Source: Patescibacteria group bacterium (GTDB taxonomy: Bacteria; Patescibacteriota; Patescibacteriia; JACRDY01). Taken from it: a stretch of DNA of 64,000 nucleotides. The notes under the pieces were generated by a model. That model had not been told where the DNA came from and made no database searches. It saw only the letters and a list, made by a program, of their open reading frames with translations. Location of the stretch: the NCBI GenBank assembly GCA_041671565.1, contig JBAZBH010000005.1:3083-67082 (forward strand), read 5' to 3'. Below are positions 24,176-56,774 of the stretch, piece by piece (within the stretch, counting starts at the first letter, position 1; each line of letters begins with the position of its first letter). Position numbers and translations under genes: made by a program.

Positions 24176-24191
24176 ACCTCCCGCTGATAAC

Positions 24192-24262: not shown

Positions 24263-24286
24263 TTATCGGCAGGAGCTAAGCCGTTT

Positions 24287-29875: not shown

Positions 29876-29942
29876 TCTAACTGAGTCTAATGGTTTAACT
29901 TCCGACTGCTAATTTTATTAGTTACCGAATTTTTCAATTGCT

Positions 29943-34600: not shown

Positions 34601-34607
34601 AAAATAA

Positions 34608-35823: not shown

Positions 35824-35899
35824 AAAGGAGATTTAAGATTTAAGATTTAGGATTTAAGAAGGCCGGTAGATTAGCATCCTACAATATAACTTGGTTAAA

Positions 35900-35968
35900 A
35901 TCACATAACACATAACATGGAACAAGGGTGGTTATAGGTCTCTTGTTATATGTTCCATGTTATGTGAT
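35900..35968. mobile_element. MITE-like hairpin element copy 2 (same 25-nt arm as 3061..3128) flanked by 8-bp direct repeat CTTGGTTA
   Basis: aaCTTGGTTAaa|ATCACATAACACATAACATGGAACA-loop-TGTTATATGTTCCATGTTATGTGAT|atCTTGGTTAtt; sits at the centre of the prfA-rpmE intergenic ATTTAAGATTT word-palindrome (35826..36045). Confidence 0.55.
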
Positions 35969-36093
35969 ATCTTGGTTATTAGTCTTAACACCAATTACCG
36001 ACATTCTTAAGTCTTAAATCCTAAATCTTTCAACAAAAAACCCCATTCCACTATAGCAAAAATTTGCCAAAAAAGGAATGGGATTTGGAGTAG

Positions 36094-39900: not shown

Positions 39901-40060
39901 AAATAGCTTCTACTGCGATTGGCGAATTTTGGCTACAAATTGTTCAAAACTCGTCAGCATAACCAGGTTATGCCTCCTCGTTTTTCACAATTTTCGCTCA
40001 AAATTCGCTCAATCTCGTGACGAAGCTATTTGTGAGATAGGCTCTAATTATTTTAATTTT

Positions 40061-41728
40061 ATGAAGAAAAGAAACAAGATTATTATTATCGTGGCGGTGG
40101 TGGCGGTTATTCTTGGCGGCTGGTTATACGCTCGGGCAAAAGGCAGCGCCGCGCCGGAATATGTCACGGCGAAAGTGGAGCGGGGCAAATTAACCCAAAC
40201 CGTTTCGGCGACCGGCTCGGTCAAGAGCACGGAAACTATTAACCTGAATTTTGCCGCCTCCGGCCGGATTACAGCGGTTAAAGTGAAAGTTGGCGACAAG
40301 GTTCGGGCGGGGCAGTATTTGGCAGCGCTCGACAGCGGCGATTTGGCGGTGCAATTGCGCCAATACCAGGCGGCGCTCGCTTCGGCGCAAGCAAACTTAG
40401 ATAAAATCCTTGCCGGCGCCAGCCAGGAAGAAATCGGCGTTTCTCAGGCGCAGGTGGACGGCGCGCTGGCGGCTTGGAACGCGGCCGTGTTGGATCTCGC
40501 CAACGCGGAAAACAACCGCGACGCCAACATGAAGATTTACCGTGAAACGGCTCTAACTGATTTGCAGAATTACCTTTTTAAGGCTCGGTCAAGCATGGAT
40601 GTGGTGGAACGGACTTATACTGATCCGGCCGGCAAAGATTATCTCGGCATTAAAAATCCGCAGAACCTCACTAGCGCCAAAGCGGAACGGCTGAATACAT
40701 TGGCTTTACTTAATAACAGCGAAGTCAAAATCAATCTGGCGGCCGGGAGCGGCAGTGACGCGGATTTAATCTCCGGAATTGACAGTTTGCTCCTTGGCAT
40801 AAACAGCGCCACTACCACCTTGGACTATATGTTTAGCGCTCTTCAAGACGCGCTGACAACCAATACTTTTCCGGAAGCGAGTCTGGACGCGTTAAAGGTT
40901 AATGTTAAGGCCGAGCAAACTATTATGAATACGGCGACCGGCGCTTTACAGACTGACCGCAGCAATTTACAGACCAAGAAAATTTATTATGATAACGCCG
41001 TGGATACTGCCGCCAGCGCCGCGGAAATTAAAAAGCAGGCTTGGACGCTGGCTCAGGCGCAATACAATGTCACGGTTGCCAGCCCCAAAACCAATGATGT
41101 GTCCTATTACCGCGCCTTAGTCAGCCAGGCGGCGGCGCAAGTGGCCGGCATTCAGCAAAAAATGTCTGACCGGGTGATCTCAGCGCCGACCGGCGGCACG
41201 ATCACCAAGGTTAATAATTTTGTTGGCGAAACTTCCAGCCTCGGGACGCCGGTTTTGGTGATGCTCCCGGATAACCCGTATTACATTGAAGTGGATATAT
41301 CTGAAGCCGACATTGCTAAAGTTAAAGTTGGCGATTTGGCGTCTTTTACTTTGGACGCTTATGGCAGCGACACCAAGTTTTCCGGCGCGGTCTTGTCAGT
41401 CGAGCCGGCGGAAACCGTGATTTCCGGCGTGGTTTATTACAAAGTCAAAATCAATCTGGAGTCGGCCGGGCAGGAAATCAAGCCGGGCATGACCGCCAAC
41501 ATCGATATTATCACCGCGGAAAAAGCTGATGTGCTGTATCTGCCGGCGCGGGCGGTTAAGACCGAAAATGGCAAGAAGGTGGTCAGCGTTCTTACCGACT
41601 CGGCAAAGAAAACTCTAGAAACCAAAGAAGTAACCGTGGGGTTAAAAGGGGATAATGGTTTGATTGAGCTGGTTTCCGGGTTAAATGAAGGAGACGAGGT
41701 GGTGGTTTACACCAAAAACGGAAAATAA
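40061..41728 (+). CDS. HlyD-family periplasmic adaptor (membrane fusion protein, MacA-like)
   Basis: N-terminal TM (MKKRNKIIIIVAVVAVILGG), long coiled-coil region, C-terminal beta-barrel domains; precedes the MacB-type ABC genes. Start moved to the ATG at 40061 (track starts at 39929). Confidence 0.7.
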   Translation: MKKRNKIIIIVAVVAVILGGWLYARAKGSAAPEYVTAKVERGKLTQTVSATGSVKSTETINLNFAASGRITAVKVKVGDKVRAGQYLAALDSGDLAVQLRQYQAALASAQANLDKILAGASQEEIGVSQAQVDGALAAWNAAVLDLANAENNRDANMKIYRETALTDLQNYLFKARSSMDVVERTYTDPAGKDYLGIKNPQNLTSAKAERLNTLALLNNSEVKINLAAGSGSDADLISGIDSLLLGINSATTTLDYMFSALQDALTTNTFPEASLDALKVNVKAEQTIMNTATGALQTDRSNLQTKKIYYDNAVDTAASAAEIKKQAWTLAQAQYNVTVASPKTNDVSYYRALVSQAAAQVAGIQQKMSDRVISAPTGGTITKVNNFVGETSSLGTPVLVMLPDNPYYIEVDISEADIAKVKVGDLASFTLDAYGSDTKFSGAVLSVEPAETVISGVVYYKVKINLESAGQEIKPGMTANIDIITAEKADVLYLPARAVKTENGKKVVSVLTDSAKKTLETKEVTVGLKGDNGLIELVSGLNEGDEVVVYTKNGK

Positions 41729-41852
41729 GTAGGAAATGACAAAATCCCAATGTCCAATCAATGCCAAATGCCAAAAGGTGGTAATTTGACATTAAGCATT
41801 TGGATTTGATTGGATATTTGAGCTTTGTCATTCTTGAAATTGAAATATTTAT

Positions 41853-42578
41853 ATGTCCAAACCAATCATTCAAGTCGTTGACTTAAAAAAAGATTATACC
41901 AACGAAGAAGTCATCACCTCAGTTCTCCGCGGGGTGAGTTTTGTGATTAACCCGGGCGAGTTTGTGGCGATTATGGGGCCGTCGGGCTCGGGCAAATCAA
42001 CCCTGATGCATATCTTGGGACTTTTAGACCGGGCAACGGTCGGCGATTATCTTTTGAAAGGCGGCAATGTCAAAGACCTGACCGACGAGGCGCTTGCCGA
42101 AACGCGCCTGCGAACGATTGGCTTTATTTTTCAAGCGTTTAATCTGCTACCGCGGCAGTCGGCTCTCGAGAATGTTAAACTGCCTTTGGTTTATAACCGC
42201 GAGGTGAATATTACCGCGCGCGCGGCTAAAGCCCAGGCGGCTTTGGAGGCGGTGGGCCTCGGGCACCGGTTAAATTTTCTCGCCAACCAGCTCTCCGGCG
42301 GCGAGAAACAGCGGGTGGCAATTGCCCGGGCACTGGTCAACGATCCGGATATTATTTTTGCTGATGAACCGACCGGCAACCTGGACAGCAAATCCGGCGA
42401 GGCGGTCATGGAAATTTTGGAAAAACTGAACGACAGCGGCAAAACCATTATCTTGGTGACCCACGAAAAAGACACGGCCGAACACGCCAAACGGGTGATC
42501 AAAATCCGCGACGGTATGCTCGCCGGCGACGAGATGGTGGAGAACCGGCGGTTGGCTAAGGACGGACTACAGAAGTAA
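41853..42578 (+). CDS. ABC transporter ATP-binding protein (MacB/LolD-type)
   Basis: Walker A GPSGSGKST, signature LSGGEKQRVAIARAL, Walker B IIFADEPTGNLD. Confidence 0.85.
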   Translation: MSKPIIQVVDLKKDYTNEEVITSVLRGVSFVINPGEFVAIMGPSGSGKSTLMHILGLLDRATVGDYLLKGGNVKDLTDEALAETRLRTIGFIFQAFNLLPRQSALENVKLPLVYNREVNITARAAKAQAALEAVGLGHRLNFLANQLSGGEKQRVAIARALVNDPDIIFADEPTGNLDSKSGEAVMEILEKLNDSGKTIILVTHEKDTAEHAKRVIKIRDGMLAGDEMVENRRLAKDGLQK

Positions 42579-42701
42579 TGTAAAATTTAAAAATCAAAAT
42601 GGAAAATGACAATTTAAAATTAAAAATGTCTGGTAGAATAGCTGATTCATTAAATCGCCGAGAAGCTGGCAATTTTACATTTTACACTGTCATTTTCCAT
42701 T

Positions 42702-43952
42702 TTGATTTTTGATTTTTCAATTATGTACTTCTTGGACGCGATAAAAATGGCCGAACGCAACTTGCTCGCCAACAAAAAGCGGGCGGTTTTGACTATCTTA
42801 GGGATTGTTATCGGCATTACGGCGGTGATTGTGATTATGGCAGTTGGCGCCGGCGCGCAAGGTTTGGTGGTGGGGCAGATCAATAGCCTCGGTTCAAACT
42901 TAGTCGGCATTTTGCCGGGCGGCGGCGACAGCAAAAGTCCGCCGGCTTTTGTTTTTGGCATTATTATTACCACTCTCAAAAATGACGATATCTACGCGAT
43001 TCGGCGTCAAGTGCCGGCCGTGGTGGCGGCTAGCGGTATTGTCACGGCGAACGAAACCGCGTCGCATGAAAATCAGAGCGGCGCTTTTAGTATCTATGGC
43101 TGTTCGGCCGAGTTTCCGGCGGTGAATGATCTGGAGGTGGACAGCGGCCGCTGGTTCACCGAGGAAGAAGAAAAGGGCCTGGGCCGAGTGGCAGTGCTTG
43201 GCAGCCAGGTGGCAATCGATTTGTTTGAAGGCGATGATCCGCTGGGGCAGAAAATTAAAATTAAAAAAGAGTCTTTTACCGTGATTGGCGTGACTAAGCC
43301 CAAAGGCGCGGTGATGACCGAGAATTTCGACAAGACAATCTATTTGCCGGTGAGCGCGGCGCAGAAATTGATCCTCGGGATTGATTACCTCAATTTTGCC
43401 CGGGTGAAAATCGACGAGGCGGCTAATATCGGGCCGGCGATTAGCGAGATCGAAAGTATTTTACGCGACCGGCATAATATTGATAACCCGAGCGACGATG
43501 ACTTTAGCGTCCGCGACCAGGCGCAGGCTTTGGATATTCTGACTCAAATCACCGACTATTTGCGGTTTTTTCTCGCGGCAGTGGCGGCGATTGCCCTCTT
43601 GGTCGGCGGCATCGGCATTATGAATATCATGCTGGTGTCGGTGACCGAACGGACTCGGGAAATCGGCCTCCGTAAAGCCGTCGGCGCGACCGAGGGCCAA
43701 ATTCTCCTGCAATTTCTTTTGGAAGCGGTTTTTCTCACCGTGATTGCCGGCGTGGTCGGAGTGATACTCGGCGGACTGATATCTTTTTTAATTTCTCTAG
43801 TCATGCAATCCTTGGGTTACAGCTGGCTGTTTAGTATTTCTTTTGGTTCAATCGTTTTGGCAGTTGGCGTCGCCGGCGGCATCGGCCTAGTTTTTGGCTA
43901 TTATCCGGCAAAACGGGCGGCGCGGCTGGATCCGGTGGAAGCGCTGCGATAA
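42702..43952 (+). CDS. ABC transporter permease, FtsX/MacB-like (4 TM plus large periplasmic domain)
   Basis: MacB_PCD-like periplasmic domain then FtsX domain (GGIGIMNIMLVSVTERTREIGLRKAVGA). Confidence 0.8.
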   Translation: MIFDFSIMYFLDAIKMAERNLLANKKRAVLTILGIVIGITAVIVIMAVGAGAQGLVVGQINSLGSNLVGILPGGGDSKSPPAFVFGIIITTLKNDDIYAIRRQVPAVVAASGIVTANETASHENQSGAFSIYGCSAEFPAVNDLEVDSGRWFTEEEEKGLGRVAVLGSQVAIDLFEGDDPLGQKIKIKKESFTVIGVTKPKGAVMTENFDKTIYLPVSAAQKLILGIDYLNFARVKIDEAANIGPAISEIESILRDRHNIDNPSDDDFSVRDQAQALDILTQITDYLRFFLAAVAAIALLVGGIGIMNIMLVSVTERTREIGLRKAVGATEGQILLQFLLEAVFLTVIAGVVGVILGGLISFLISLVMQSLGYSWLFSISFGSIVLAVGVAGGIGLVFGYYPAKRAARLDPVEALR

Positions 43953-44087
43953 CTTATTTCCTTTATTTTAGGCCTTGGTTAAGGTTTCTAACACTAGAGT
44001 TGAAAGTTATAAAGTTATAAAGTTGAAAGTTAGGGAACTTTAAAACTTTATAACTTTCAACTTTATAACTTTGGTCGGCAAAAGTTT

Positions 44088-45323
44088 ATGCGGTTATATT
44101 CCTTTATAGATCAATTAAAGACTACCGTCGCCACCCTCCGAGCCAATAAAGGCCGGTCGATTTTGACGCTCCTGGGGATTGTCATTGGCATCACTTCGGT
44201 GATTATTGTTTTCTCTGCCGGCCGGGCGCTCCAAGCCTTTATGGATGACCAAATGTCGTCTTTTGGCAGCAATTATATCCAGATCGAGCCGCGCACGCCG
44301 GGCCAGCAAAATCAAGGCACCGGGCCGAATGTCGTCACGACCTTGAAAGAGAGCGACCGCGAGGCAATCATGAAAATCCCGAATATCCGGACCGCCTACG
44401 GCGGCCTGATGGGCCAAGAAAAAATCACCTATCAGAGCGAGTCGGAAAAAGTCATGCTTTGGGGCGTGTCGCCGGAGTATTTGGATATTGACACCGGCGA
44501 GATCGCCGCTGGACGCTGGTTCACGCAGGAAGAAAATAATTCACAAGCCAAAGTGGCGGTTCTGGGGAGCGAGATTAAAGATACCTTGTTTGGGACCGGC
44601 GAATATATCGGCCGTGATGTCAAAATCGGCCGGCAGAATTTCAAAGTCATTGGCAGTTTCCAGTCGCGCGGGGGGCTCGGGTTTTTTAACATGGACAAAA
44701 TGGTTTGGCTGCCGGTCAAAACTCTCCAAAAAGAAATCTTGGGCGTGGATTACCTCAGCTGGATTACGGCGCAAATGGCGGATCCGACAGAGAGCGAATT
44801 CACCGCCGTCCAGGTCAATGATCTCCTTCGCGACCGGCATAATATCACCGACCCGGCGCGCGATGACTTTCAAGCGGTGACCCAAGAACAGGCGCAGGGG
44901 ATAGTGGATACGGTGGTCAACGGCATCACGGCGTTACTTTTGGTCTTGGTGGCGATTTCGCTCCTGGTCGGCGGCGTCGGCATTATGAATATCATGTATG
45001 TCACCGTGACCGAGCGGACTTATGAGATTGGCCTCCGCAAAGCGGTCGGCGCCACGGCCCGCGATATTCTCTGGCAGTTTCTCCTGGAAGCCGTCACCCT
45101 GACTTTCGCCGGCGGGGTCGTAGGAATCGTCTGCGGCGCGTTGGTGTCATTTGGCATTTCGCTTCTCGCTAACTTTTTTGGTTTTGCTTGGAAGTTTAGC
45201 CTGCCCCTCAACGGCATTTTGATCTCTTGTATTTTCTCGGTGCTGGTTGGGCTGATTTTCGGCCTATACCCGGCGCGTAAAGCGGCCAGGCTAGATCCGG
45301 TGGAGGCGCTGCGGAATGAGTAG
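44088..45323 (+). CDS. ABC transporter permease, FtsX/MacB-like (second copy)
   Basis: Paralogous to 42702..43952 (GGVGIMNIMYVTVTERTYEIGLRKAVGA). Confidence 0.8.
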   Translation: MRLYSFIDQLKTTVATLRANKGRSILTLLGIVIGITSVIIVFSAGRALQAFMDDQMSSFGSNYIQIEPRTPGQQNQGTGPNVVTTLKESDREAIMKIPNIRTAYGGLMGQEKITYQSESEKVMLWGVSPEYLDIDTGEIAAGRWFTQEENNSQAKVAVLGSEIKDTLFGTGEYIGRDVKIGRQNFKVIGSFQSRGGLGFFNMDKMVWLPVKTLQKEILGVDYLSWITAQMADPTESEFTAVQVNDLLRDRHNITDPARDDFQAVTQEQAQGIVDTVVNGITALLLVLVAISLLVGGVGIMNIMYVTVTERTYEIGLRKAVGATARDILWQFLLEAVTLTFAGGVVGIVCGALVSFGISLLANFFGFAWKFSLPLNGILISCIFSVLVGLIFGLYPARKAARLDPVEALRNE

Positions 45324-45498
45324 CGGTAAGCCCCGAAGGGGCCTCTTCGGGGCAATAAGCTGTAAGCTATAAGGGGTGGATGAGCCACGAATAGCGTAAA
45401 TTTAACCCTTATAGCTTACCGCTTAATCTGGACTATTTCCTAATTTGTGCTAAAGTCGGGGTATCAAAGTAACTGTTTTAACCCAGGAGGTGTTAGCC

Positions 45499-45987
45499 AT
45501 GGACAAACAGAACAGCCAAGTTGAAAATCAAAACGACAGCGCGGAACGGATGGGAAAACTGGTGGAGTCTCAAGGAACAATAATCAAATGCCTGTTCCTT
45601 GTTATCTTCTTTCTCATCGCCATAGCGATGGTTGCGGCCTTTTGGCCCCGGGCGAAAACCTTGCCTGAATTGCTGGCCGCGGCGGAATGCCTGGACCCGG
45701 CGCAGATCGCCGAGATCACTTACAGCCCGGAACATGAGAATATGGTCCAGCTCATCTGGCCTGACGGTTCAAGCGGCATGTTGCCGTGGGGCAGTGTCTT
45801 GGAGGCGGACTTTGATGATGGTGACGGTCATTACTTCACCAATGTCTGCAATGTCCAGCCGATCTTTGACCGGCTAATGTGCCGGTTGTACGGCATCGGC
45901 GGCATTGGCGGCTTTGATCTCCAAAACCGCGAGTTCTGGACCATCCGGGTCGTGGACCAGCGGCCATTTCCCCATCTAGGGGAATAA
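45499..45987 (+). CDS. hypothetical membrane-anchored protein, GC-rich island, paralogous motif with the next gene
   Basis: ATG at 45499 with AGGAGG 8 nt upstream (the track GTG start is at 45490); TM helix; motif NVCNVQPIFDRLMCRLYGI resembles GTCTMEPIMESFMCRFYEV in 46255..47841; local GC clearly above the window average. Confidence 0.4.
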   Translation: MDKQNSQVENQNDSAERMGKLVESQGTIIKCLFLVIFFLIAIAMVAAFWPRAKTLPELLAAAECLDPAQIAEITYSPEHENMVQLIWPDGSSGMLPWGSVLEADFDDGDGHYFTNVCNVQPIFDRLMCRLYGIGGIGGFDLQNREFWTIRVVDQRPFPHLGE

Positions 45988-46254
45988 TAGCAATAAAATC
46001 AAGGACAATCAGAGGCTGGGCAAGACGCCTGGCCTTTTTCTTTTGGGGTGCTCTGCGCTCCGTACTAATTGCCTCAAATCCTTGACAATAATTGGTATAT
46101 ATGATAGGCTACAGGCATTAGATAAAGACCTTTGAAAATATCAATAAATATGGGCTATATTCGTTTAGCCTTAAGGATTTAGACAGTGATTCCGGATGCC
46201 TCGCCGAAGGTCGGCGGGGTACGCAATTCACAACACGGTTAAGGAGATCGGATC

Positions 46255-47841
46255 ATGAAAAAGCTCAGTTTGGTTCTGGCGATGATGTTGGCGATGATGC
46301 TGACGGTGACCGCCTTTGCGGCCGGACCTCTCAGCCCGCCGGTCGATTCCGTCGGCCCCGGAGGTTGCGACTTCCAATGGCCGTGGGAAAGCGATGACGA
46401 CGCGGACGACGACACCGATGACGACGCCGGCGAGAACCTCAACAATGAGGAAGTTTGCAGCTGGGTGTATTCACCGGCAGAGAAACGGCTGCATCTGGAT
46501 TGGAGCAATGGTGGTCGTCCCGGCACCTGTATTATCCCGGAAGGGATTCAGGCCGGCGCTATTCTCGAGGCGACGGATCAATGTGGATCCGGATGGGTCG
46601 GGACATGCACCATGGAACCGATCATGGAGTCGTTCATGTGTCGGTTTTATGAGGTTCCACCTCCGGCCACGAAGGAGTGTATTGTGCTTCGGATTATGAA
46701 TGACGGCGACGACGACATCGAGTCCTGTGACGGATGTTTCGTTGACGGCGTTTGCTACGCCGCCGGCACCTTGAACTCAGCCAACTCTTGCTTGGAATGT
46801 AATCCCAGCAATAGCCCAACTGGCTGGTCGGCAGTGCAAAACGGCACGGCGTGCGACGACGGATTGTTCTGCAACGGCTTCGATAACTGCGACTACGGCG
46901 TTTGCACGACGCATACTGGCACGCCTTGCCTTGATAGTTGCGATGAAGACGCCGATCAGTGTGGATGGTGCCCTGAAGGTGGTTGCGTTCATTTTTTGAA
47001 CCGTCTGGCAGCAGGCGGACCGGATGTCGATAATGTTTACCTTGAAATGCGCGTTGCTTTCAACGCCAACGACGAGGTTCAAGGGTTCCCGGCTTTCACG
47101 GGGCAAAATGCGATAACTCGGCAAGACCTTATCAATGGGTATGCTGAATTGATCGTCGAGACCTCGGACGGGTGGACGGTGGAGGTTCAGAAGAACCTTG
47201 TCACTGGCAACGCCGACGGTGACCTGTATTATGCCACGGTGCCGTTCGAGCTCGAGAATTTTCGGCTGAATTTAGAAACGGCATATGGCCGCCGATCGTA
47301 TGCCAACCCTGGGCTCTTCAAGATTCAGGGAAACTTGTATCCCTGTGACATGGGTATCTTTTCGCGGACGGCGGATTGCTCGTTTCTGCGGGTGGCGTTG
47401 AATTCATCGACGCCATCAGGAGTTTTCAGCGCAGGTTACGACAAGGTGGTCTATAAGGGCAACTTGGTTGTGGCCGCGAATATCGACTACACATGGGTTC
47501 CTGCGATGAAATTCAGGTTGGTTACCTCCGATCAACCGATCATGCCGTCGCCGACGAACTTTTTCGGCTTCCGGCTGATGTCGGAAGATTTCCAAACAAC
47601 TTACGGCACAGGAGAGTTGATAGGGGATATGATTTACATCACCCGCTCCGATCTCAACCATGCTGCTTTGGGGGTTGGTTCCGGAACAACCAAAACGGTG
47701 GTTTTGGTCGCCAGTGTGGTGGGGTTACCCATCAACACCAGCTTCGGATTCATCTTGATGTCGGTCGAGGCGACCGACTACAACGGCGAACCCAGGGATG
47801 TTGCTGGCGTCCCACTTTCGGGCGGCTGGATGACGCTCTGA
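46255..47841 (+). CDS. secreted cysteine-rich repeat protein (acidic N-terminal region, myxo-type disulfide repeat-like Cys modules, C-terminal beta-rich domain)
   Basis: Signal peptide MKKLSLVLAMMLAMMLTVTAFA, poly-Asp DDDADDDTDDD, repeats like C..C..........GTACDDGLFCNGFDNCDYGVC; GC-rich codon usage unlike its neighbours. Confidence 0.5.
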   Translation: MKKLSLVLAMMLAMMLTVTAFAAGPLSPPVDSVGPGGCDFQWPWESDDDADDDTDDDAGENLNNEEVCSWVYSPAEKRLHLDWSNGGRPGTCIIPEGIQAGAILEATDQCGSGWVGTCTMEPIMESFMCRFYEVPPPATKECIVLRIMNDGDDDIESCDGCFVDGVCYAAGTLNSANSCLECNPSNSPTGWSAVQNGTACDDGLFCNGFDNCDYGVCTTHTGTPCLDSCDEDADQCGWCPEGGCVHFLNRLAAGGPDVDNVYLEMRVAFNANDEVQGFPAFTGQNAITRQDLINGYAELIVETSDGWTVEVQKNLVTGNADGDLYYATVPFELENFRLNLETAYGRRSYANPGLFKIQGNLYPCDMGIFSRTADCSFLRVALNSSTPSGVFSAGYDKVVYKGNLVVAANIDYTWVPAMKFRLVTSDQPIMPSPTNFFGFRLMSEDFQTTYGTGELIGDMIYITRSDLNHAALGVGSGTTKTVVLVASVVGLPINTSFGFILMSVEATDYNGEPRDVAGVPLSGGWMTL

Positions 47842-47851
47842 TCTTTTCACA

Positions 47852-47885
47852 ATTTTATGCAAAGGACTACCCTCGGGGTGGTCCT
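47852..47885 (+). terminator. rho-independent terminator (AGGACTACCC-tcgg-GGTGGTCCTTTTTCTTTT)
   Basis: Hairpin plus T-tract; the same tail CCTTTTTCTTTTGGGG occurs after the previous gene at about 46030. Confidence 0.6.
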
Positions 47886-47899
47886 TTTTCTTTTGGGGG

Positions 47900-48005
47900 A
47901 GTCCACAGTCCAGAGTCCGGAGTGAGCTGTTAGCTAATAAATCCCAAGGGGATCCCTTTGGGACTCTGAGCTTTCTCTGAACTCCGGACTCGGGACTCTG
48001 GACTC
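47900..48005. repeat. intergenic word-palindrome (GTCCGGAGTC family, as at 6811..6898)
   Basis: gagtccacagtccagagtccggagtgagc...gaactccggactcgggactctggactc. Confidence 0.6.
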
Positions 48006-48061
48006 GTTAGCACTCTTGATCCCGCCAGTCGCTCCGCTCCTGGCGGGACAAGCACCTTCTT

Positions 48062-48088
48062 TTAGCACTCTTGACATAGGAGTGCTAA
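48062..48088 (+). promoter_or_regulatory. CIRCE operator (HrcA binding site) TTAGCACTC-N9-GAGTGCTAA, with TTGACA in the spacer and TATAAT at 48095..48100
   Basis: Exact match to the CIRCE consensus directly upstream of hrcA; a half-site TTAGCACTCTTGA also occurs at 48008. Confidence 0.9.
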
Positions 48089-48119
48089 CCGCGGTATAAT
48101 GCCTTTATAAAGCAAAAAT

Positions 48120-48821
48120 ATGGAAGACCGCACACAAAAATTGCTAAATACCATCGTCAGAGAATACATAAAAACCGCCCAGCCGGTGGGGTCCAAGCTT
48201 TTGGTGGATAAGTATAATTTGGATATTAGCTCGGCGACGGTGCGCAATGAAATGGCCTATCTGGAACAAGAGGGCTATATCACTCAGCCGCATACTTCCG
48301 CCGGCCGGGTGCCGACCGAAAAGGGCTATAAATTTTATATCAAGAATTCTCTGGAGCCGAAAGATATCAACAAGACTCAAGACAAAGCTTTTGAAAAAAT
48401 AGTTAAAAGCTCCAAGCAAGACCCCCGTGATTTAGTCAAAAGTCTGGCTAGGCAAATAGCGGAAAACTCCGGTCAGCTGATTTTTGTCAGTTTTGGCGAC
48501 GGCAATTTCTATTATACCGGCATGTCTAATATCTTTTCTCAGCCGGAGTTTGTCGAGCAAGAGATGATCTGCGATCTCAGCAAAATGATGGATCACTTTG
48601 ATGAGTCGATAAAAAAGTCATTTGATTCGACTGATAATGAGGTCAGAGTGATGGTCGGCTCGGCCAATCCTTTTAATAATCGGTGTTCGACGGTGGTGGT
48701 TAATTATGACTCCGGAGAAAACCAAGGCGTTATCGGTTTACTCGGTCCGATGAGAATGGATTATGAAGTTAATATGGCTCTGGTGGAGTATATTAGAGAT
48801 TTAATAAATAATCTGGAATAG
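48120..48821 (+). CDS. hrcA: heat-inducible transcription repressor HrcA (short form)
   Basis: N-terminal winged HTH LLNTIVREYIKTAQPVGSKLL...SSATVRNEMAYLEQEGYITQPHTSAGRVPT; downstream of CIRCE and upstream of grpE-dnaK. Confidence 0.8.
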   Translation: MEDRTQKLLNTIVREYIKTAQPVGSKLLVDKYNLDISSATVRNEMAYLEQEGYITQPHTSAGRVPTEKGYKFYIKNSLEPKDINKTQDKAFEKIVKSSKQDPRDLVKSLARQIAENSGQLIFVSFGDGNFYYTGMSNIFSQPEFVEQEMICDLSKMMDHFDESIKKSFDSTDNEVRVMVGSANPFNNRCSTVVVNYDSGENQGVIGLLGPMRMDYEVNMALVEYIRDLINNLE

Positions 48822-49395: not shown

Positions 49396-51330
<1,935 letters not shown>

Positions 51331-51339: not shown

Positions 51340-51660
51340 GCGTCTCGATGCGGTATCGGGGCGCCCTTTAAGGGTTAAATTAACTCCCCACACCCCACCC
51401 CCGCCTGCAATGCTACGCATAGCGTTGCGGGCAGGCTGCCCCTCCCCTTGGCAGGGGAGGAGACGAGATAGTTTGTTCTCGGATTAAAGAGTATCTTTAG
51501 GTTAAAGTAAGTAGTTTAGTCAATTCTCAGGTAATAACTACTTTTAGAAATACAAGCTTATTTGAAGAAGAAAACTATAACGAGGAACTAGTTAACTAGT
51601 CTCTCCCCCTGCTAAGGGGGAGGTCAGGAGGGGGTGTGGGGAGTTTAATTTTGTAGGACG
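51340..51660. mobile_element. GC-rich element with about 27-bp terminal inverted repeats (AAATTAACTCCCCACACCCCACCCCC ... GGAGGGGGTGTGGGGAGTTTAATTT) enclosing internal hairpins; MITE-like or structured RNA
   Basis: Arms are near-perfect reverse complements about 220 nt apart; internal hairpins gcctgcaatgctacgcatagcgttgcgggc, ctgcccctccccttggcaggggaggag and ctctccccctgctaagggggag; GC-rich in an AT-rich context. Confidence 0.5.
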
Positions 51661-51692
51661 AAATTTAATTAATATTATTTGTTAATAAATTT

Positions 51693-51908
51693 ATGTCTAA
51701 TATAGAGGAGGTTAAAATTTTTTTAGAAAGTCACAAAAATAAATATTGCGATGATTGTTTGTCTGATATTCTAAAAATTAAACCACGCCAGCAAATAAAT
51801 CAAATTTGTAATAAGCTAAAAAAACAAGGAATTATTCAGCGAAAATTGGATAAATGTAGCGAGAGAGTGGTTTGCAAAAGAGAATATAAACTAATTAATT
51901 CCATATAA
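51693..51908 (+). CDS. hypothetical small Cys-containing protein
   Basis: 71 aa, CDDC...C...C pattern; AT-rich cassette between dnaK and dnaJ. Confidence 0.3.
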   Translation: MSNIEEVKIFLESHKNKYCDDCLSDILKIKPRQQINQICNKLKKQGIIQRKLDKCSERVVCKREYKLINSI

Positions 51909-51917
51909 AAATTTTCT

Positions 51918-52253
51918 ATGGACAGCCTAAAAAATGAGAAGTTTTCTGAGATAGATAATAAATACAAGGATGATCAACCAGCAGCTGATTTTTTTAAGGC
52001 AAATTGGATTTTTAGTAGGGGCTCTTATTATGCTAAACAAGGTCAGACCCGTGAAGCTATAAATGATTTTGAGGAGGCAATTAAAATAAAAAACGATTTT
52101 TTACCAGCATATTATAGTCTTTCTTTTGCATATATGGAAATAGGAGAAGAGAATAAGGCAGCTAAAATTTTTAGTAAATGTCCCGATGTAATGAAATCGG
52201 GAAGCAATAAAATAATAGCAAGAAGAGAAGATTTTTGGAAACATGTAAAATAA
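51918..52253 (+). CDS. hypothetical TPR-like repeat protein
   Basis: Helical repeats (AKQGQTREAINDFEEAIKIKNDFLPAYYSLSFAYMEIGEENKAAKIF) typical of TPR. Confidence 0.35.
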   Translation: MDSLKNEKFSEIDNKYKDDQPAADFFKANWIFSRGSYYAKQGQTREAINDFEEAIKIKNDFLPAYYSLSFAYMEIGEENKAAKIFSKCPDVMKSGSNKIIARREDFWKHVK

Positions 52254-52266
52254 TAAACTAATTTTT

Positions 52267-52560
52267 ATGACAAACCAACCAAATCAACCCACCGAAATTA
52301 AACTCGCCGACAATATTCCCGGCGCGGAGTACGCTAATTTTATGCAAGTCAGCCACACCAAAGAGGAGTTTCTCTTGATGTTTGCCAATATTGCTGGACT
52401 AAGTGGCCGGGTTATTGGTAAAATCATTACCAGCCCGGGGCACCTGAAGCGAATTATCAAAGCGCTGGAAGAAAATGTTAAGATGTATGAGTCCAAGTTC
52501 GGCGAGATTAAAGAAGCCGAAGCGCCGACGGGCAAAGAGATCGGCTTTTCTGACAAATAA
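52267..52560 (+). CDS. hypothetical protein (DUF3467-like)
   Basis: YANFMQVSHTKEEFLLMF resembles the DUF3467 core; weak. Confidence 0.3.
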   Translation: MTNQPNQPTEIKLADNIPGAEYANFMQVSHTKEEFLLMFANIAGLSGRVIGKIITSPGHLKRIIKALEENVKMYESKFGEIKEAEAPTGKEIGFSDK

Positions 52561-52617
52561 GAAGTCGTGCGAAATACCAGTTGCTTTGATATTTTTTTGT
52601 AAACCAATATTAAAATT

Positions 52618-53082
52618 ATGGATGAAATAATTGAAATAGCCATCAATGAGTTAAATAATTATTTAAAAGAATCAAATTGGTATGGCAGAGAAAATGAAGT
52701 GGTAAATCTATTTGCTCATTTATTTTTATCAAAATATGTAGGAAGAAATAATTTTACTTCTATATCACAAATTGGGATTGAGGTTGCCGTAAAGCAGCTA
52801 CCCTCATTAAGTGGGAAAAAACTTGTCAGAAAAGATTTGGTTATCTGGGGGCAAGAACGCCAAACAGTGTGGGATAATAATCACGAATCAGTCAACGATC
52901 CAATAGCGGTTTTAGAATGGAAAGTAAATTCTATATCTAAGTGTGATGGCGACATTGAATGGTTAAAAAAATTTACAAAAAGCTACCCAAAAGTAATAGG
53001 ATATAGTATTTGTGCCTTTATTAATAATAAAAGAGGCGTAAGTTTTAAAAAAATAAAAAATGGCGAAATAGTTACCGGCTAA
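52618..53082 (+). CDS. hypothetical protein with possible PD-(D/E)xK nuclease-like motif
   Basis: KDLVIWGQ...(about 20 aa)...PIAVLEWKVN gives a D...E.K spacing like restriction-endonuclease-fold proteins; tentative. Confidence 0.3.
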   Translation: MDEIIEIAINELNNYLKESNWYGRENEVVNLFAHLFLSKYVGRNNFTSISQIGIEVAVKQLPSLSGKKLVRKDLVIWGQERQTVWDNNHESVNDPIAVLEWKVNSISKCDGDIEWLKKFTKSYPKVIGYSICAFINNKRGVSFKKIKNGEIVTG

Positions 53083-53101
53083 TAAATGTTTAACCAATAA
53101 T

Positions 53102-53536
53102 ATGATAGTTGCTTGCGCTTATTGCGGCAGAGAAATTTATCAAACCGCCGACACTCAAACTGGGGTGTCACATGGCGCTTGTTCGGTTTGTGGCGAGATA
53201 GAAAAGGCTAAGGTTAGTAAGGAAGATATTAAGGGCAGTAATTTTATGTCTATAATTTTAGGTCGCGCCAGAGAATACATTTTTTCTAAAACCAATGAGT
53301 CGGAGAAAGACGGTCTTTTGAAGCTTTATCGAGAAGATATGTCGAGCTTAGTTGAACCTCAAGGCGAGGTGACTTATTTTAGAACGGAGAAAAAAAGATT
53401 GGCTGATGCTCAAGAGGCGCAAAAGACAGCTAACGATATCGTTGCCAGAACCAAGGCGGAAATAGCGAAAGAAAAAGCCGAAGAAACCGCTGAATCGGCG
53501 ACGCCGCCGGTTGATCCGGGCATTAAAATGAAATAA
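53102..53536 (+). CDS. hypothetical zinc-ribbon plus coiled-coil protein
   Basis: CAYCGREI...CSVCGEI N-terminal zinc ribbon; C-terminal charged helix. Confidence 0.3.
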   Translation: MIVACAYCGREIYQTADTQTGVSHGACSVCGEIEKAKVSKEDIKGSNFMSIILGRAREYIFSKTNESEKDGLLKLYREDMSSLVEPQGEVTYFRTEKKRLADAQEAQKTANDIVARTKAEIAKEKAEETAESATPPVDPGIKMK

Positions 53537-53538
53537 AC

Positions 53539-54633
53539 ATGGCAAAAGATTATTACGCTACCCTCGGCGTCGGGAAAGGCGCCAGCCAGGACGAGATTAA
53601 GAAGGCCTTCCGCGAGAAGGCCCATCTTTATCATCCGGATAAAAAAGGCGGCGATGAGGCGAAGTTTAAAGAAGCAAGCGAAGCCTACCAGACTCTCAGC
53701 AATCCGGAAAAACGGCAACAGTATGATCGTTTTGGTTCTGATGCCGGTTTTCAGGGTGGCGGCGCCGGTGGGTTCAATTGGCAAGATTTCGCGCGGCAAC
53801 AGGGCGGGTTTTCTTCTGGCGGCGCGGATTTCAACGGCGGTTTCGGCGATATTTTTGGTGATTTGGGCGAGATGTTTGGTTTTGGTGGCGGCCGGTCAGG
53901 CGGCCGGCGCGGGCCGCAGCGCGGCGAAGACATTCAGGCTGAGTTGGCAGTGGATTTTCTAGAAAGTGTTTTTGGCGCCGAGAAAACCGTGGAACTCCAA
54001 AAAACCATTGTCTGCGAGCATTGCCTTGGCAATGGCGCGGAGCCGGGCAGTAAAATCAATACCTGCTCAACTTGCGGCGGCTCGGGTCAGGTGGAGCAAG
54101 TCCAGCGGACGATACTTGGCAATATGCGGGTGGCGTCAGTTTGCCCGACGTGTAATGGCGAAGGCAAGAAAGCGGAAAAGCCCTGCAGTCGTTGCCGCGG
54201 CAAGGGCGTTTATTCCGACCGGCAAGCAATCAAGATTAAAATCCCGGCGGGTATTGCCAACGGCCAGAGCATTCGGCTCAGTGGCCAGGGCGAAGCTGGG
54301 GAGCGCGGCGCCGGCGCGGGCGACTTGTATATCAGTGTTAAAGTTAAAGCCGATCCGCGGTTCAAGCGGCAGGGCGATAATATCCTAACCACGGAGAAAA
54401 TCAGTTTTCGCCAGGCGGCCTTGGGCGACAAGATTGAAGTGGCGACGGTCCACGGTTCAGTGGTTTTGAAAATTCCCGATGGCACCCAGACCGGCAAAGT
54501 TTTCAAACTCAGCGGCAAAGGCGTGCCGCATTTGGGCGGCGGGGGAACGGGCGACCATTTGGTGGAGGTGGTGGTGGTGACACCGACGCGGCTAAGCCGG
54601 AGCCAGAAGAAGTTGATCGAAGGGCTGGAATAA
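53539..54633 (+). CDS. dnaJ: molecular chaperone DnaJ
   Basis: J-domain DYYATLGV...HPDK, Gly/Phe-rich region, four CxxCxGxG zinc-finger repeats, C-terminal domains. Confidence 0.9.
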   Translation: MAKDYYATLGVGKGASQDEIKKAFREKAHLYHPDKKGGDEAKFKEASEAYQTLSNPEKRQQYDRFGSDAGFQGGGAGGFNWQDFARQQGGFSSGGADFNGGFGDIFGDLGEMFGFGGGRSGGRRGPQRGEDIQAELAVDFLESVFGAEKTVELQKTIVCEHCLGNGAEPGSKINTCSTCGGSGQVEQVQRTILGNMRVASVCPTCNGEGKKAEKPCSRCRGKGVYSDRQAIKIKIPAGIANGQSIRLSGQGEAGERGAGAGDLYISVKVKADPRFKRQGDNILTTEKISFRQAALGDKIEVATVHGSVVLKIPDGTQTGKVFKLSGKGVPHLGGGGTGDHLVEVVVVTPTRLSRSQKKLIEGLE

Positions 54634-54635
54634 CA

Positions 54636-54786
54636 AAAGATTTAAGATTTAGGATTTAAGATTTAAGAATGGTCGGTAATCAGAGTTTAGACTAATAAAC
54701 CAAACTGAAAGTTCAAAATCTAAAGAATTAAGGTAATTCAAAACGGAGTTTATTCTTAAATCTTAAATCCTAAATCTTAAATCTCT
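54636..54786. repeat. intergenic word-palindrome (ATTTAAGATTT family)
   Basis: gatttaagatttaggatttaagatttaagaa ... ttcttaaatcttaaatcctaaatcttaaatc. Confidence 0.6.
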
Positions 54787-54839
54787 TCTAATTTTCACCT
54801 CTTTTATTCTTACCCAAATAATGCTAAGATTTCCTCATT

Positions 54840-56486
54840 ATGACCGTCAGCCTTTACCGCCAATATCGGCCGCAAACCTTTGCCGAAGTGGTGGGCCAAA
54901 ACCAAATCAAGGTGACACTGCAGAACGAAATTAAGCAGGGCAAAATCGCCCAGGCTTATTTGTTTTCTGGCCCGCGCGGCATTGGCAAAACCACCACCGC
55001 CCGATTGATGGCCAAAGCAGCCAACTGCGAAAAAAGAAAAGCGGGCGAGTCCGAGCCTTGCAACCATTGTGCCGCTTGCGAGGAGATCACCGGCGGTTCC
55101 AGCCTGGATGTTTTGGAGATTGATGCCGCCTCGCACACCGGCGTTGATAATGTCCGCGCCAATATCATTGAAAGCGCGCGCTTTGCGCCCAGCCGGCTGA
55201 AGAATAAAGTTTATATTATTGACGAAGTCCACATGCTTTCGACCGCGGCGTTTAACGCGCTCCTAAAAACTTTGGAAGAGCCACCGGCGAATGTGATTTT
55301 TATCCTTTGCACCACTGAGAGCCATAAACTTCCGCTGACGATTATTTCCCGTTGCCAGCGGTTTGATTTTCGCCGGGTGGCGTTTGGCGAAGTGGTGGAC
55401 CATTTGGCTTTCATCTGCCGCGAGGAAGGCGTCAGTTGCGACAAAGAAGTTTTGCAGAATATCGCCCGGCATTCTGAAGGTTATTTGCGCGACGCCGTGG
55501 GCCTTTGCGGCCAGTTGCTGTCGCTCGGTGAGAAGAAAATCACCTGGGAACAGGCGCAACTAGTGATGCCGCGGTCGAATTTTCTCTTAGTGGCGGAATT
55601 TTTGGAATATCTGGTTAACCGCGACACCGAGAAAGCTTTGCGCCTGGTTAACCGTTTGGTTGATGAAGGCGTTAACCTGAGCCAGTTTGTTCTGGACACG
55701 GTGGAGTTTTTACGGAAGCTTCTTTTAACCAAGGTTTCCGGCCGGCTGGACGAGTTCACTTTAGAATTAGATGAGGCGGGTGGCAAGAAATTAACCGCGA
55801 TTTTAGGGAGCCTGAGTTTAAGTGAGATCGCGTCTTGGGCTAATATCTTTATTAGCAAGAATCAGGCAATCAAACAGAGCGCCATTCCGCAGTTGCCGCT
55901 GGAATTGGCGGTGGTGGAGATTTGCGGAGAAACGGAAAATACAGAATCAAGAATCATGAAGCACCCCAGCATACGCGGGGCAAGCGAATCAAGAGTAGAA
56001 AGCCAGAAGGCAGAAATCAGAAAAGAGAAATTAGAAATAGGAAATACGAAACCTAGTACGCCGTCATCAGTAGTTAGTAATCAGCCAAAAATAGAAGTTC
56101 AGCCAACACCCAGTAAAAAAGGCGGCAAAGGCGCGGTCAAACTGGAAGAAGTGGAGGCTAAATGGGGTGAGTTTATCGCCAGCTTGAATGACAGCAACCA
56201 TTCTTTGTCGATGACGCTTCATGTTGGCCGGCCGCTAGCGGTGGACGGCGACACCGTGCGAGTGGGCTTTAAATACAAATTTCACAAGGAAATGATGGCT
56301 GAAAGCAAGAATCGGTTGACATTGTCCGAGGGTTTAAGTAAGATAATGGGCGTTAAACTCCTAGTTGAGCCGATAGTTGCTGAAAACTTAGTTTTCGATT
56401 CCAGTTCTAAGCCCAGCCCGGAAGCGCCGAGTGGCACGGGCGTCGCCGATGTGGCGAAAATGTTTGGGGGAAAAGTGATGGGGTAA
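54840..56486 (+). CDS. dnaX: DNA polymerase III subunit gamma/tau
   Basis: AAA+ clamp-loader motifs GPRGIGKTTTARLMAKAANC, Zn module CNHCAAC, DEVHML, SRC; contains the in-frame repeat at 55942..55998 and AGAAA-word repeats. Confidence 0.85.
   Translation: MTVSLYRQYRPQTFAEVVGQNQIKVTLQNEIKQGKIAQAYLFSGPRGIGKTTTARLMAKAANCEKRKAGESEPCNHCAACEEITGGSSLDVLEIDAASHTGVDNVRANIIESARFAPSRLKNKVYIIDEVHMLSTAAFNALLKTLEEPPANVIFILCTTESHKLPLTIISRCQRFDFRRVAFGEVVDHLAFICREEGVSCDKEVLQNIARHSEGYLRDAVGLCGQLLSLGEKKITWEQAQLVMPRSNFLLVAEFLEYLVNRDTEKALRLVNRLVDEGVNLSQFVLDTVEFLRKLLLTKVSGRLDEFTLELDEAGGKKLTAILGSLSLSEIASWANIFISKNQAIKQSAIPQLPLELAVVEICGETENTESRIMKHPSIRGASESRVESQKAEIRKEKLEIGNTKPSTPSSVVSNQPKIEVQPTPSKKGGKGAVKLEEVEAKWGEFIASLNDSNHSLSMTLHVGRPLAVDGDTVRVGFKYKFHKEMMAESKNRLTLSEGLSKIMGVKLLVEPIVAENLVFDSSSKPSPEAPSGTGVADVAKMFGGKVMG
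55942..55998. repeat. in-frame copy of the about 55-nt repeat element inside dnaX
   Basis: cagaatcaagaatcatgaagCACCCCAGCATACGCGGGGCAAGCGAATcaagagtag, near-identical to 18067..18123 in murG, same reading frame (..MKHPSIRGASESRVES..). Confidence 0.7.
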
Positions 56487-56632
56487 AAAATAATTTTTAA
56501 TTTTTAATTTAAAATTTCTAATCAATTTATAATTCTTAATTTTTAATTACCACGAACTTGGCTTTAGGTTTAAAAATTATAAATTAAACATTAGAAATTC
56601 ATTAAAAATTAAGAATTTTAAATTAAAAATTG
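56487..56632. repeat. AT-rich word-palindrome element, homologous to 33536..33690
   Basis: aatttttaatttttaatttaaaatttctaatcaa...aaattaaacattagaaattcattaaaaattaagaattttaaattaaaaattg. Confidence 0.55.
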
Positions 56633-56640
56633 TTGTTTAT

Positions 56641-56711
56641 TGGGAGATCGTCTAATGGTAGGACAACGGATTCTGGCTCCGTTTATCCAGGTTCGAATCC
56701 TGGTCTCCCAG
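56641..56711 (+). tRNA. tRNA-Gln (anticodon CTG)
   Basis: TGGGAGA acceptor, TCTAATGGTAGGA D-arm, anticodon stem-loop ACGGA-TTCTGGC-TCCGT, GGTTCGAATCC T-arm; body nearly identical to tRNA-Gln(TTG) at 24192. Confidence 0.8.
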
Positions 56712-56774
56712 TTTTAAAAATTGAGGTTCGCCCGCTCGTCGCGAAGCGCGAGCGGGTCCGCTCACGGCTTTGCC

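Follow-up and report, generated by a model that had tools for sequence, protein, structure and literature searches.

A lineage-restricted gene pair encoding a putative membrane-anchored and a putative exported cysteine-rich protein at a variable operon junction in a Patescibacteria genome

How did two genes without annotated relatives come to lie between an ATP-binding cassette (ABC) transporter operon and hrcA in an uncultured, ultra-small bacterium of the candidate phyla radiation (CPR), and what might their products do? We analyzed a 64,000-nucleotide (nt) stretch of contig JBAZBH010000005.1 (the window) from a metagenome-assembled genome (MAG) annotated as 'Patescibacteria group bacterium'. 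Two open reading frames, ORF1 and ORF2, whose database entries both sit on one 68-kb contig, occupy the 2.8 kb between macB2, the last gene of an operon for a membrane-fusion protein (MFP), an ATPase and two permeases (MFP-ATPase-macB1-macB2, 39929-45323), and hrcA (Table 1). A preliminary description of this DNA had named both flanks, ABC transporter and hrcA, as Pfam matches confirm, and had proposed a horizontally acquired, GC-rich island for two paralogous cysteine-rich proteins. Our results point to a lineage-restricted two-gene accessory insert in which ORF1 would be a membrane-anchored protein and ORF2 an exported extracellular binding protein of the adhesion type. We hold this reading tentatively, with a probability of about 45%.

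Gene order provides the clearest evidence. Word-indexed searches covering 5.8 billion proteins returned one full-length relative per protein, P0011 for ORF1 and P0002 for ORF2 (P and L numbers are our handles for proteins and loci), both encoded on the 4.5-kb contig L001 in the order macB2 C-terminus, an extra 148-amino acid (aa) ORF, ORF1 homologue, ORF2 homologue, hrcA. This shared order indicates that the arrangement was inherited. We further fetched 80 metagenome loci (L003-L082) with macB2 as query, several of them cut by contig ends, and mapped the window proteins by tblastn. In 22 loci besides L001, hrcA-grpE(-dnaK) follows macB2, with a gap of at most 160 bp in 15, and homologues of ORF1 or ORF2 were found in none of the 80. 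The pair therefore interrupts a conserved gene order, as seen from these 15 contigs, and has the patchy distribution of a genomic island, with one other carrying contig among 5.8 billion proteins. The most parsimonious explanation would be that the pair was inserted once, before the window genome and L001 diverged, at an operon junction where gene content varies. The macB2-hrcA junction is indeed a variable spot in related metagenome contigs. The closest relative in the metagenome scan, L003 (71% MacB2 identity), stops at the macB2 stop codon. Larger macB2-hrcA gaps were seen in L053 (8254-9572), L075 (1503-2885), L035 (6260-6986) and L050 (1551-2139); judged by eye, their contents are unrelated to the pair: in one case a methyltransferase-like ORF next to a gene for a multi-pass membrane protein, elsewhere an ORF resembling GIY-YIG proteins and one of 188 aa.

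Compared with L001, the pair has diverged much like its flanking genes, with synonymous sites near saturation. Identities and ratios of nonsynonymous to synonymous substitution rates (dN/dS) were ca. 72-73.5% and 0.146 for ORF1, 51-56% and 0.231 for ORF2, 71% and 0.096 for macB2 and 52% and 0.151 for hrcA. Both genes are under purifying selection and lineage-restricted, and together with the gene order shared with L001 this marks the gain as old. Hallmarks of mobility are missing from the locus: there is no integrase, no direct or inverted border repeat besides the two terminator tails described below, and no tRNA gene near the pair (nearest at 24191-24263 and 56640-56712), while tblastn with ORF2 gave no phage or plasmid matches. 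A mobile-element origin was rejected on the absence of border repeats, a nearby tRNA gene and phage or plasmid similarity. Of the proposed horizontal acquisition, the insertion itself is thus upheld by synteny (macB2 and hrcA being adjacent in 15 contigs), while the claims of foreign composition, recency and mobility are not.

Base composition, in contrast to gene order, does not set the pair apart, and it is the synteny comparison, not composition, which reveals the insertion. GC content averages 45.6% in the window, with genes ranging from 0.31 to 0.57. ORF1 (GC 0.544, GC at third codon positions, GC3, 0.675) and ORF2 (0.551, 0.652) had been described as visibly unlike the flanking ABC-transporter genes in composition and codon usage, yet they equal macB2 (0.540, 0.672) and resemble the ABC ATPase gene (0.533, 0.640), gyrB (0.538, 0.650), prfA (0.563, 0.684) and dnaJ (0.567, 0.622). 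Ranked by GC3 among 52 window genes, prfA is first, followed by ORF1, macB2, ORF2 and gyrB. Only the contrast to hrcA withstood analysis, since GC does drop downstream of the pair (hrcA 0.430, grpE 0.443). The 2566-bp region originally delimited as an island has a GC content of 0.530, which ranks it among the highest 2.7% of windows of equal size, but the richest such window begins at 44751, within macB2, the GC-rich stretch as a whole begins at ca. 44.05 kb, also in macB2, and the stretch at 24.66-27.4 kb is equally GC-rich. The island has no left boundary. Codon usage was scored with a leave-one-out codon model based on the 34 genes with GC3 of at least 0.5. Within this native GC-richer class, ORF1 is typical in log-likelihood (z +0.20) and ORF2 mildly atypical without being the extreme (z -1.64). 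The call of a GC island is an artefact of comparison with hrcA alone, and in the window the pair lacks the deviant composition of a horizontally acquired genomic island. After its gain it may have come to resemble the GC-richer genes of the host in composition.

The true compositional outliers of the window are low-GC blocks, which are better candidates for foreign DNA than the ORF1-ORF2 region. The block at 51400-53540 (GC 0.30-0.36), between dnaK (49396-51330) and dnaJ (53539-54633), contains small ORFs at 51918-52253 and 52618-53082 (GC3 0.22-0.25) and at 53102-53536 (GC3 0.40). Further low-GC blocks were observed at 4.3-5.2 kb, 10-14.4 kb and 37.6-38.0 kb.

The two proteins have one domain in common, which we refer to as domain A. 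The motif that had first suggested their kinship is real and forms part of a similarity of ca. 75 aa (ORF1 62-133 vs. ORF2 59-134 in BLASTP: 29% identity over 79 aa, E = 2e-6). They can be called paralogous over domain A but not elsewhere, domain A being ca. 14% of ORF2. ORF1 consists of a short N-terminal segment, a hydrophobic helix (residues ca. 28-48; the peak 19-residue Kyte-Doolittle window is 2.98, at residue 28), domain A (ca. 62-133) and a GIGGIGG tail. It has four cysteines, one of them within the hydrophobic, predicted transmembrane stretch, so that the label cysteine-rich suits ORF2 (23 Cys in 528 aa) but not ORF1. C117 and C128 are invariant across the domain A family, as are Y75, W87, L101, E102, G110, P121 and M127 (ORF1 numbering).

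An exhaustive HMMER profile search for domain A among 1.84 billion representatives yielded 7 matches: the ORF1 homologue of L001, ORF2 itself, the proteins P0012, P0013 and P0014, and two weak matches that are probably spurious. The score of ORF2 (P0001, residues 58-134, E = 1.6e-24) is circular because this segment was among the three sequences from which the profile was built. P0012-P0014 (E 1.5e-17 to 3.3e-11) are 220-230 aa long and have a lipobox-type segment at the N-terminus and domain A at the C-terminus. They are 39-44% identical to ORF1 and share with it domain A, both conserved cysteines and the MCR-x-YGIGG motif, but have a lipoprotein signal peptide with lipobox instead of the hydrophobic helix and ca. 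110 additional N-terminal residues. A location of domain A outside the membrane follows from these lipoprotein relatives and from the conserved pair of cysteines, and ORF1 is accordingly best described as a putative signal-anchored membrane protein displaying domain A outside the cell. Domain A is probably a beta-rich unit of ca. 75-95 aa whose two conserved cysteines form a disulfide. Within the family the ORF2 copy stands furthest from the others (26-30% identity in full-length alignments, compared with 39-44% between ORF1 and the lipoproteins), which makes it an old paralogue and rules out a recent duplication of ORF1 into ORF2. A locus search with a 4-sequence domain A alignment returned solely L002, which carries the already known P0013 and, unlike the ORF1 locus, has no ORF2-like neighbor. 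L002 (CAZJZH010000052.1, 6.3 kb) is binned as 'uncultured Gammaproteobacteria'; P0013 lies at 968-1630, and its neighbors, judged by eye only, are an FtsQ-like protein, an alanine racemase (alr), SerS and a LysS fragment. Either the binning may be wrong or domain A may also occur outside CPR bacteria.

ORF2 starts with a predicted Sec-type signal peptide (MKK, 19 hydrophobic residues and AFA/AG, with hydropathy windows above 1.6 starting at residues 1-9). The peptide and its cleavage site were assigned heuristically from the sequence, and both this N-terminus and the following poly-Asp run are kept in P0002. The signal peptide, the poly-Asp stretch and GTACDDGLFCNGFDNCDYGVC had been noticed before and are all found in ORF2, and the designation of the two products as secreted or membrane proteins is in good agreement with the ORF2 signal peptide and with the hydrophobic helix and lipobox-bearing relatives of ORF1. 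The alignment with P0002 shows a 95-aa gap: P0002 lacks ORF2 residues ca. 58-152 and with them domain A. The boundaries of this indel fall on Asp-coding, GAC-rich repeats (46399-46430 and 46702-46721), which suggests recombination or slippage between them, and the L001 lineage probably lost domain A when the poly-Asp-coding repeats on either side of it recombined. They belong to one direct-repeat family, D1 (46399-46418, 46411-46430 and 46702-46721), and Tandem Repeats Finder (TRF) reports 46392-46433 with a period of 12.

A cysteine-rich module and a C-terminal region make up the remainder of ORF2. Cysteines account for 4.4% of all residues, but 21 of the 23 lie in residues 38-244 (ca. 10% locally). 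The protein is highly acidic, with 8.7% Asp and a net charge of ca. -47 after signal peptide removal. Identity to L001 is 81% for the Cys module, drops to 59% for residues 245-400 and is lowest, at 27%, for residues 401-528, and a profile search with the C-terminal region retrieved P0002 as its sole homologue. A hydrophobic stretch near the C-terminus (windows from 481-484) was considered as a membrane anchor and dismissed, since the aligned P0002 segment is charged. We suppose that ORF2 would be exported by the Sec pathway and act outside the cell as an adhesion-type binding protein, with the variable C-terminal region as its specificity end. ORF1 may hold ORF2 at the membrane via a contact between their two domains A.

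The Cys module has homologues, arranged in tandem, within large proteins from unrelated bacteria. It is 42-43% identical to P0003 and P0004 over 20% of ORF2 (E 2e-49 and 9e-44). These two proteins (866 and 893 aa) contain a unit of ca. 108 aa in 6-7 tandem copies, with ca. 2 copies in P0005 and 1 in P0007. Related Cys units occur in P0005-P0009, and P0007 and P0008 join the module to BNR/sortilin or Kelch propellers. When the module is aligned across P0002-P0007, 16 columns are invariant, including 12 Cys, with the signature C-x-G-C...N-P-x-N-x-C-E-x-C...W-S...C-D-D-G-x-F-C. All of P0003-P0009 differ from ORF2 in having neither domain A nor an ORF2-type C-terminal region. The contigs that encode P0003 reach 2.4 Mb; the 10.6-kb locus that we fetched has a GC content of 72% and encodes sigma-54 activators, and the flagellar protein FlgK is encoded on a second copy of this locus. 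These features indicate a large-genome organism, unlike a CPR bacterium, the GC content of a Cys-module host being known from this one examined contig.

The modules had previously been likened to the myxo-type disulfide repeat (TIGR02232). This repeat is ca. 40 aa long, has about six cysteines and occurs in tandem, whereas ORF2 has one module of 87 aa with 14 cysteines and its relatives have a period of ca. 108 aa. Searches with hidden Markov models for TIGR02232 and the corresponding Pfam family PF13948 (DUF4215) gave 0 matches at E ≤ 10 for ORF2, an isolated 92-aa module, P0003, P0005, P0007 and P0009, so that membership in this family fails. The isolated module matched no other Pfam or NCBIfam family at this threshold either. 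Some likeness exists, as both are extracellular, disulfide-rich and Asp/Gly-rich, and the P0003 host is a high-GC organism with sigma-54 regulators. The ORF2 module is a member of a separate family of Cys-rich extracellular repeats that is not curated.

Both genes have transcription signals of their own (Table 1). The matching terminators with an identical tail, already noted in the preliminary description, were found behind both ORFs, 24 nt past the stop codon of ORF1 and 20 nt past that of ORF2, each hairpin being followed by TTTTTCTTTT as expected for intrinsic terminators. With folding energies of -17.2 (ORF1) and -18.4 (ORF2) kcal/mol they are the two strongest in a 10-kb scan. In the window the 16-nt tail CCTTTTTCTTTTGGGG is confined to two sites, 46033 and 47883, and at least two matches, with up to 2 mismatches allowed, were obtained in only 2 of 100 shuffles. 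As a T5CT4 tail also closes the corresponding L001 terminators, it is a lineage habit of terminators and not the mark of a mobile unit. An Rfam search of 45200-48200 at E ≤ 1 returned nothing but a ctRNA match on the ORF1 terminator, which at 20.6 bits against a gathering threshold of 50 was taken as chance. The ORF1 promoter-like site was read from the sequence and is not reported by the consensus scan, hence it is a putative one; the block TGGACT..TAATTTGTG.TAAAGTC is kept in the L001 alignment. Upstream of ORF2 the consensus scan reported 46132-46161. Both ORF2 -35 elements are conserved in L001, where the alignment retains TTGACA and CTTTGAAAA...AATAAATA..GGCTATA. Own terminators and L001-conserved promoter-like sites suggest that ORF1 and ORF2 form two monocistronic units. 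The ORF2 leader further contains a hairpin which, compared by eye in two sequences, shows one compensatory change (C-G to U-A) and one change from G-C to G-U in L001. It has no Rfam match and could be an mRNA-stabilizing or regulatory element.

The pair is separated from macB2 by two stable hairpins. The fold of 45318-45432 has an energy of -51.6 kcal/mol (z -5.05; 0 of 200 shuffles equally good) and includes an inverted repeat (45356-45375 and 45406-45425) with 95% complementarity. These hairpins are not of the heptamer-repeat type described below and are not conserved in L001. On the other side of the pair, we take the element upstream of hrcA to be a CIRCE operator from general knowledge of HrcA operators. 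It overlaps the hrcA promoter, and an additional TTAGCACTCTTGA half-site was observed at 48010-48022; the operator with the promoter and the extra half-site are both kept in L001.

Table 1. Positions of features at and around the ORF1-ORF2 locus (window coordinates).
Feature	Position	Strand	Details
HlyD-type MFP gene	39929-41728		upstream of the pair
ABC ATPase gene	41853-42578		upstream of the pair
macB1	42702-43952		MacB/FtsX permease gene, upstream of the pair
macB2	44088-45323	+	second MacB/FtsX-type permease, left flank; Pfam MacB_PCD 6.4e-38, FtsX 2.1e-19
Two stable hairpins	45330-45425	+	right behind macB2 stop codon, no U-tract
ORF1 promoter-like site	45429-45456	+	TGGACT-N16-TAAAGT, preceded by TGc (extended -10)
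ORF1 ribosome-binding site	45485-45490	+	AGGAGG, 8 nt upstream of ATG
ORF1	45499-45987	+	162 aa; mechanical ORF start GTG 45490; MFA6533855.1, hypothetical protein
ORF1 intrinsic terminator	46011-46048	+	hairpin 46011-46037; 11-bp stem, 6 GC pairs, 5-nt loop; tail TTTTTCTTTTGGGG
ORF2 promoter region	46082-46161	+	TTGACA (46082-46087)-N17-TAGGCT; second, TTGAAA-N18-TATATT (46132-46161)
ORF2 5' leader hairpin	46199-46219	+	9 bp; CCUCGCCGA-AGG-UCGGCGGGG, around GCCGAAGGUCGG
ORF2	46255-47841	+	528 aa; MFA6533854.1, hypothetical protein
Signal peptide (predicted)	46255-46320	+	residues 1-22; MKK, hydrophobic core, AFA/AG
Poly-Asp linker	46390-46425	+	residues 46-57, SDDDADDDTDDD; GAC/GAT tandem repeats
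ORF2 domain A	46426-46656	+	residues 58-134; absent from P0002
Second acidic repeat	46702-46721	+	brackets domain A together with poly-Asp linker
Cysteine-rich module	46726-46986	+	residues 158-244; 87 aa, 14 Cys, single copy
Orphan beta-rich C-terminal region and stop codon	46987-47841	+	residues 245-528
ORF2 intrinsic terminator	47861-47898	+	hairpin 47861-47887; 12-bp stem, 6 GC pairs, 3-nt loop
Long hairpin	47899-48005	+	GAGTCCN heptamer repeats and complement; -64.3 kcal/mol, z -6.76
Presumed CIRCE operator	48062-48088		TTAGCACTC-N9-GAGTGCTAA; upstream of hrcA
Sigma-70 promoter of hrcA	48071-48100		TTGACA-18-TATAAT, 12/12 in promoter scan; overlaps CIRCE operator
hrcA	48120-48821	+	right flank; Pfam HrcA 1.1e-18; followed by grpE, dnaK
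Heptamer-hairpin spacers	6808-6899, 15953-16040, 17147-17394, 24009-24165, 26135-26178		
Heptamer-hairpin spacers	29749-29876, 33549-33689, 34602-34791, 35829-36029, 42573-42733		
Heptamer-hairpin spacers	43995-44075, 47899-48005, 54629-54793, 56484-56639, 59116-59227		

Other explanations of the pair have to be weighed against the accessory insert. ORF2 could belong to the envelope or the extracellular space without being adhesive, for example as a structural cell-surface protein binding Ca2+ or another metal, with ORF1 unrelated to it except for an old common domain. The strong negative charge, the Asp content and the poly-Asp run kept in P0002 would suit such a role, as would the densely disulfide-bonded module, which suggests a rigid extracellular scaffold, and the ORF2 homologue without domain A is still found beside ORF1. 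We nevertheless regard this as unlikely, because Pfam and NCBIfam contain no recognizable Ca-binding motif or family for ORF2, because the steep fall in identity from the Cys module to the C-terminal end fits a specificity domain better, and because neighborhood in both genomes suggests a functional link, although two genomes are weak evidence. Still less credit can be given to a recently acquired, compositionally foreign GC-rich island with a host-interaction factor. The high GC rank of the region, the much lower GC of hrcA and grpE downstream, the insertion relative to a conserved macB2-hrcA adjacency and a Cys-module relative from a 72%-GC genome speak for it, as does the GC3 of the L001 homologues of ORF1 and ORF2 (0.60 and 0.64), which is above both flanks (0.485 and 0.481). 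A recent foreign origin is, however, hard to reconcile with GC and GC3 values equal to those of macB2, gyrB and prfA in a rich stretch that begins inside macB2, with unexceptional codon usage, with the lack of integrase, tRNA gene, terminal repeats and phage or plasmid similarity, and with the same arrangement in L001, where flanks of 52-71% identity and nearly saturated synonymous sites imply an old event.

MacB/FtsX-type transporters work with extracytoplasmic partners or expel periplasmic proteins, and ORF1 and ORF2, with products predicted to be extracytoplasmic and genes immediately downstream of the ABC operon on the same strand in both carrying genomes, might be partners or substrates of the adjacent system. 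Yet all 80 other fetched loci have the ABC genes without ORF1 or ORF2, so that co-occurrence is not conserved, and the pair has its own promoter-like sites and terminators behind the stable hairpins. These observations make a MacB link quite improbable; moreover, no ABC transporter lies close to the L002 gene for a domain A protein, and unrelated genes occupy the macB2-hrcA junction in other lineages. Hardly credible at all is the idea that the two frames are non-functional, either spurious or in decay, within an extended spacer. The absence of an annotated family and the scarcity of homologues among 5.8 billion proteins would allow for it, but neither frame is disrupted in the two genomes that have them, where dN/dS amounts to 0.15-0.23, conservation extends to their ribosome-binding sites, promoter-like sites and terminators, and the Cys pattern is invariant across distant homologues.

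Several results also count against the accessory insert of a membrane-anchored and an adhesion-type protein which we prefer. ORF2 matched no NCBIfam or Pfam family at E ≤ 10, nothing significant in PHROGs and no PADLOC entry, and profile searches of the PDB with full-length ORF2 (E ≤ 1), domain A (E ≤ 1) and the Cys module (E ≤ 10) found nothing. AlphaFold2 models were unusable, that of ORF2 (2-sequence alignment) showing predicted strands at a mean predicted local distance difference test score (pLDDT) of 40.5 and that of ORF1 (3 sequences) reaching 61.6; comparison of the ORF1 model with PDB structures in Foldseek was uninformative (best E 0.12, template modeling score ≤ 0.31). Structure prediction failed for both proteins because of too few homologues. 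ORF2 has no recognizable cell-wall or membrane retention signal, and the tether idea is weakened by the L001 homologue of ORF2, which lacks domain A and yet has ORF1 next to it. The elevated GC3 of the L001 pair leaves some probability to a foreign, originally GC-richer source. Only two genomes carry the pair, and a gain as opposed to multiple losses, as well as the direction of the domain A indel, rests on parsimony. The assignment of function is itself inferred.

A more far-reaching proposal would make domain A a homotypic docking module by which ORF1 captures ORF2, giving a two-component anchor-adhesin in one small lineage. A stalk would then be formed by the acidic linker together with the rigid module of 14 Cys, the choice of host cell would fall to the rapidly evolving C-terminus of ORF2, and recombination between poly-Asp repeats would have uncoupled ORF1 and ORF2 in the L001 lineage. 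As a speculative extension, modules of terminator and heptamer hairpin, which L001 has in duplicate around the pair, could be recombination substrates that move cassettes into operon junctions. We consider this elaboration a long shot.

Heptamer hairpins are a feature of the window in general. Many of its spacers contain a long hairpin whose arms consist of 3-9 tandem units of 7 nt (sometimes 8 nt) and their reverse complement, with a unit that varies by spacer (GAGTCCG, AAAGTCA, AAGATTT, AAAGTTAT, AATTTTT and others). Searches of the literature on intergenic palindromes in CPR genomes returned no description of such hairpins. The family of the hairpin behind the ORF2 terminator also occurs at 6808-6899, and a GAGTCC-type element lies at the equivalent place of L001. 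An AATGTCC heptamer array was observed at 17216-17263 and 59116-59163 with identical TRF statistics, which are apparently copies of one element, and with the same sub-array CAATGTCCAAT. The mechanical ORF at 59173 starts inside the repeat (translation LGIGYWDLIGHWSLGIGH), hence its true start is probably further downstream. In L001, a module of ca. 125 nt, comprising a terminator and a GAGTCC-type hairpin, is present twice (1354-1478 and 3600-3723), 2245-2246 bp apart, and flanks the ORF1-ORF2 homologue pair; the copies are 95% identical over 38 nt in the terminator part and 74% over 80 nt in the hairpin part. The extra 148-aa ORF of L001 (894-1340) lies upstream of the first module copy and has no Pfam match.

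Within the literature on cysteine-rich secreted proteins of Patescibacteria, the only precedent that we found comes from Peribacteria, another CPR lineage, in which signal-peptide-bearing, strain-variable, cysteine-rich extracellular proteins with a proposed role in attachment have been described (Anantharaman et al. 2016, PMC4736985). ORF2 resembles these proteins in its CPR genome and its predicted signal peptide and extracellular location. The Peribacteria proteins average 1655 aa with 7.2% Cys and are encoded in a 14-gene cluster (PMC4736985), whereas ORF2, with 528 aa, 4.4% Cys, one module and a small membrane protein as partner, falls short of the size (>1000 aa) and Cys content (ca. 7%) of that class. 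As the Peribacteria class (PMC4736985) is descriptive and not a homology family, ORF2 is likened to it by description only.

Taken together, the pair looks like one more case of lineage-specific exported CPR proteins, combining one rare domain family with one orphan domain. The value of this case is limited by the two genomes that carry it and by the fact that similar unannotated, cysteine-rich exported CPR proteins have been described since 2016. Given a Patescibacteria MAG, products predicted to be extracytoplasmic and the analogy with the Peribacteria proteins, which is the sole outside support for an adhesive function, a surface or host-interaction role, as first proposed, may reasonably be inferred. 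Host recognition and attachment in Patescibacteria are poorly understood, and the Saccharibacteria literature that we retrieved concerns type IV pili. Lineage-specific secreted proteins like ORF2 are obvious candidates for specificity factors, and the locus offers a compact, testable pair of one membrane and one secreted protein with a common rare domain.

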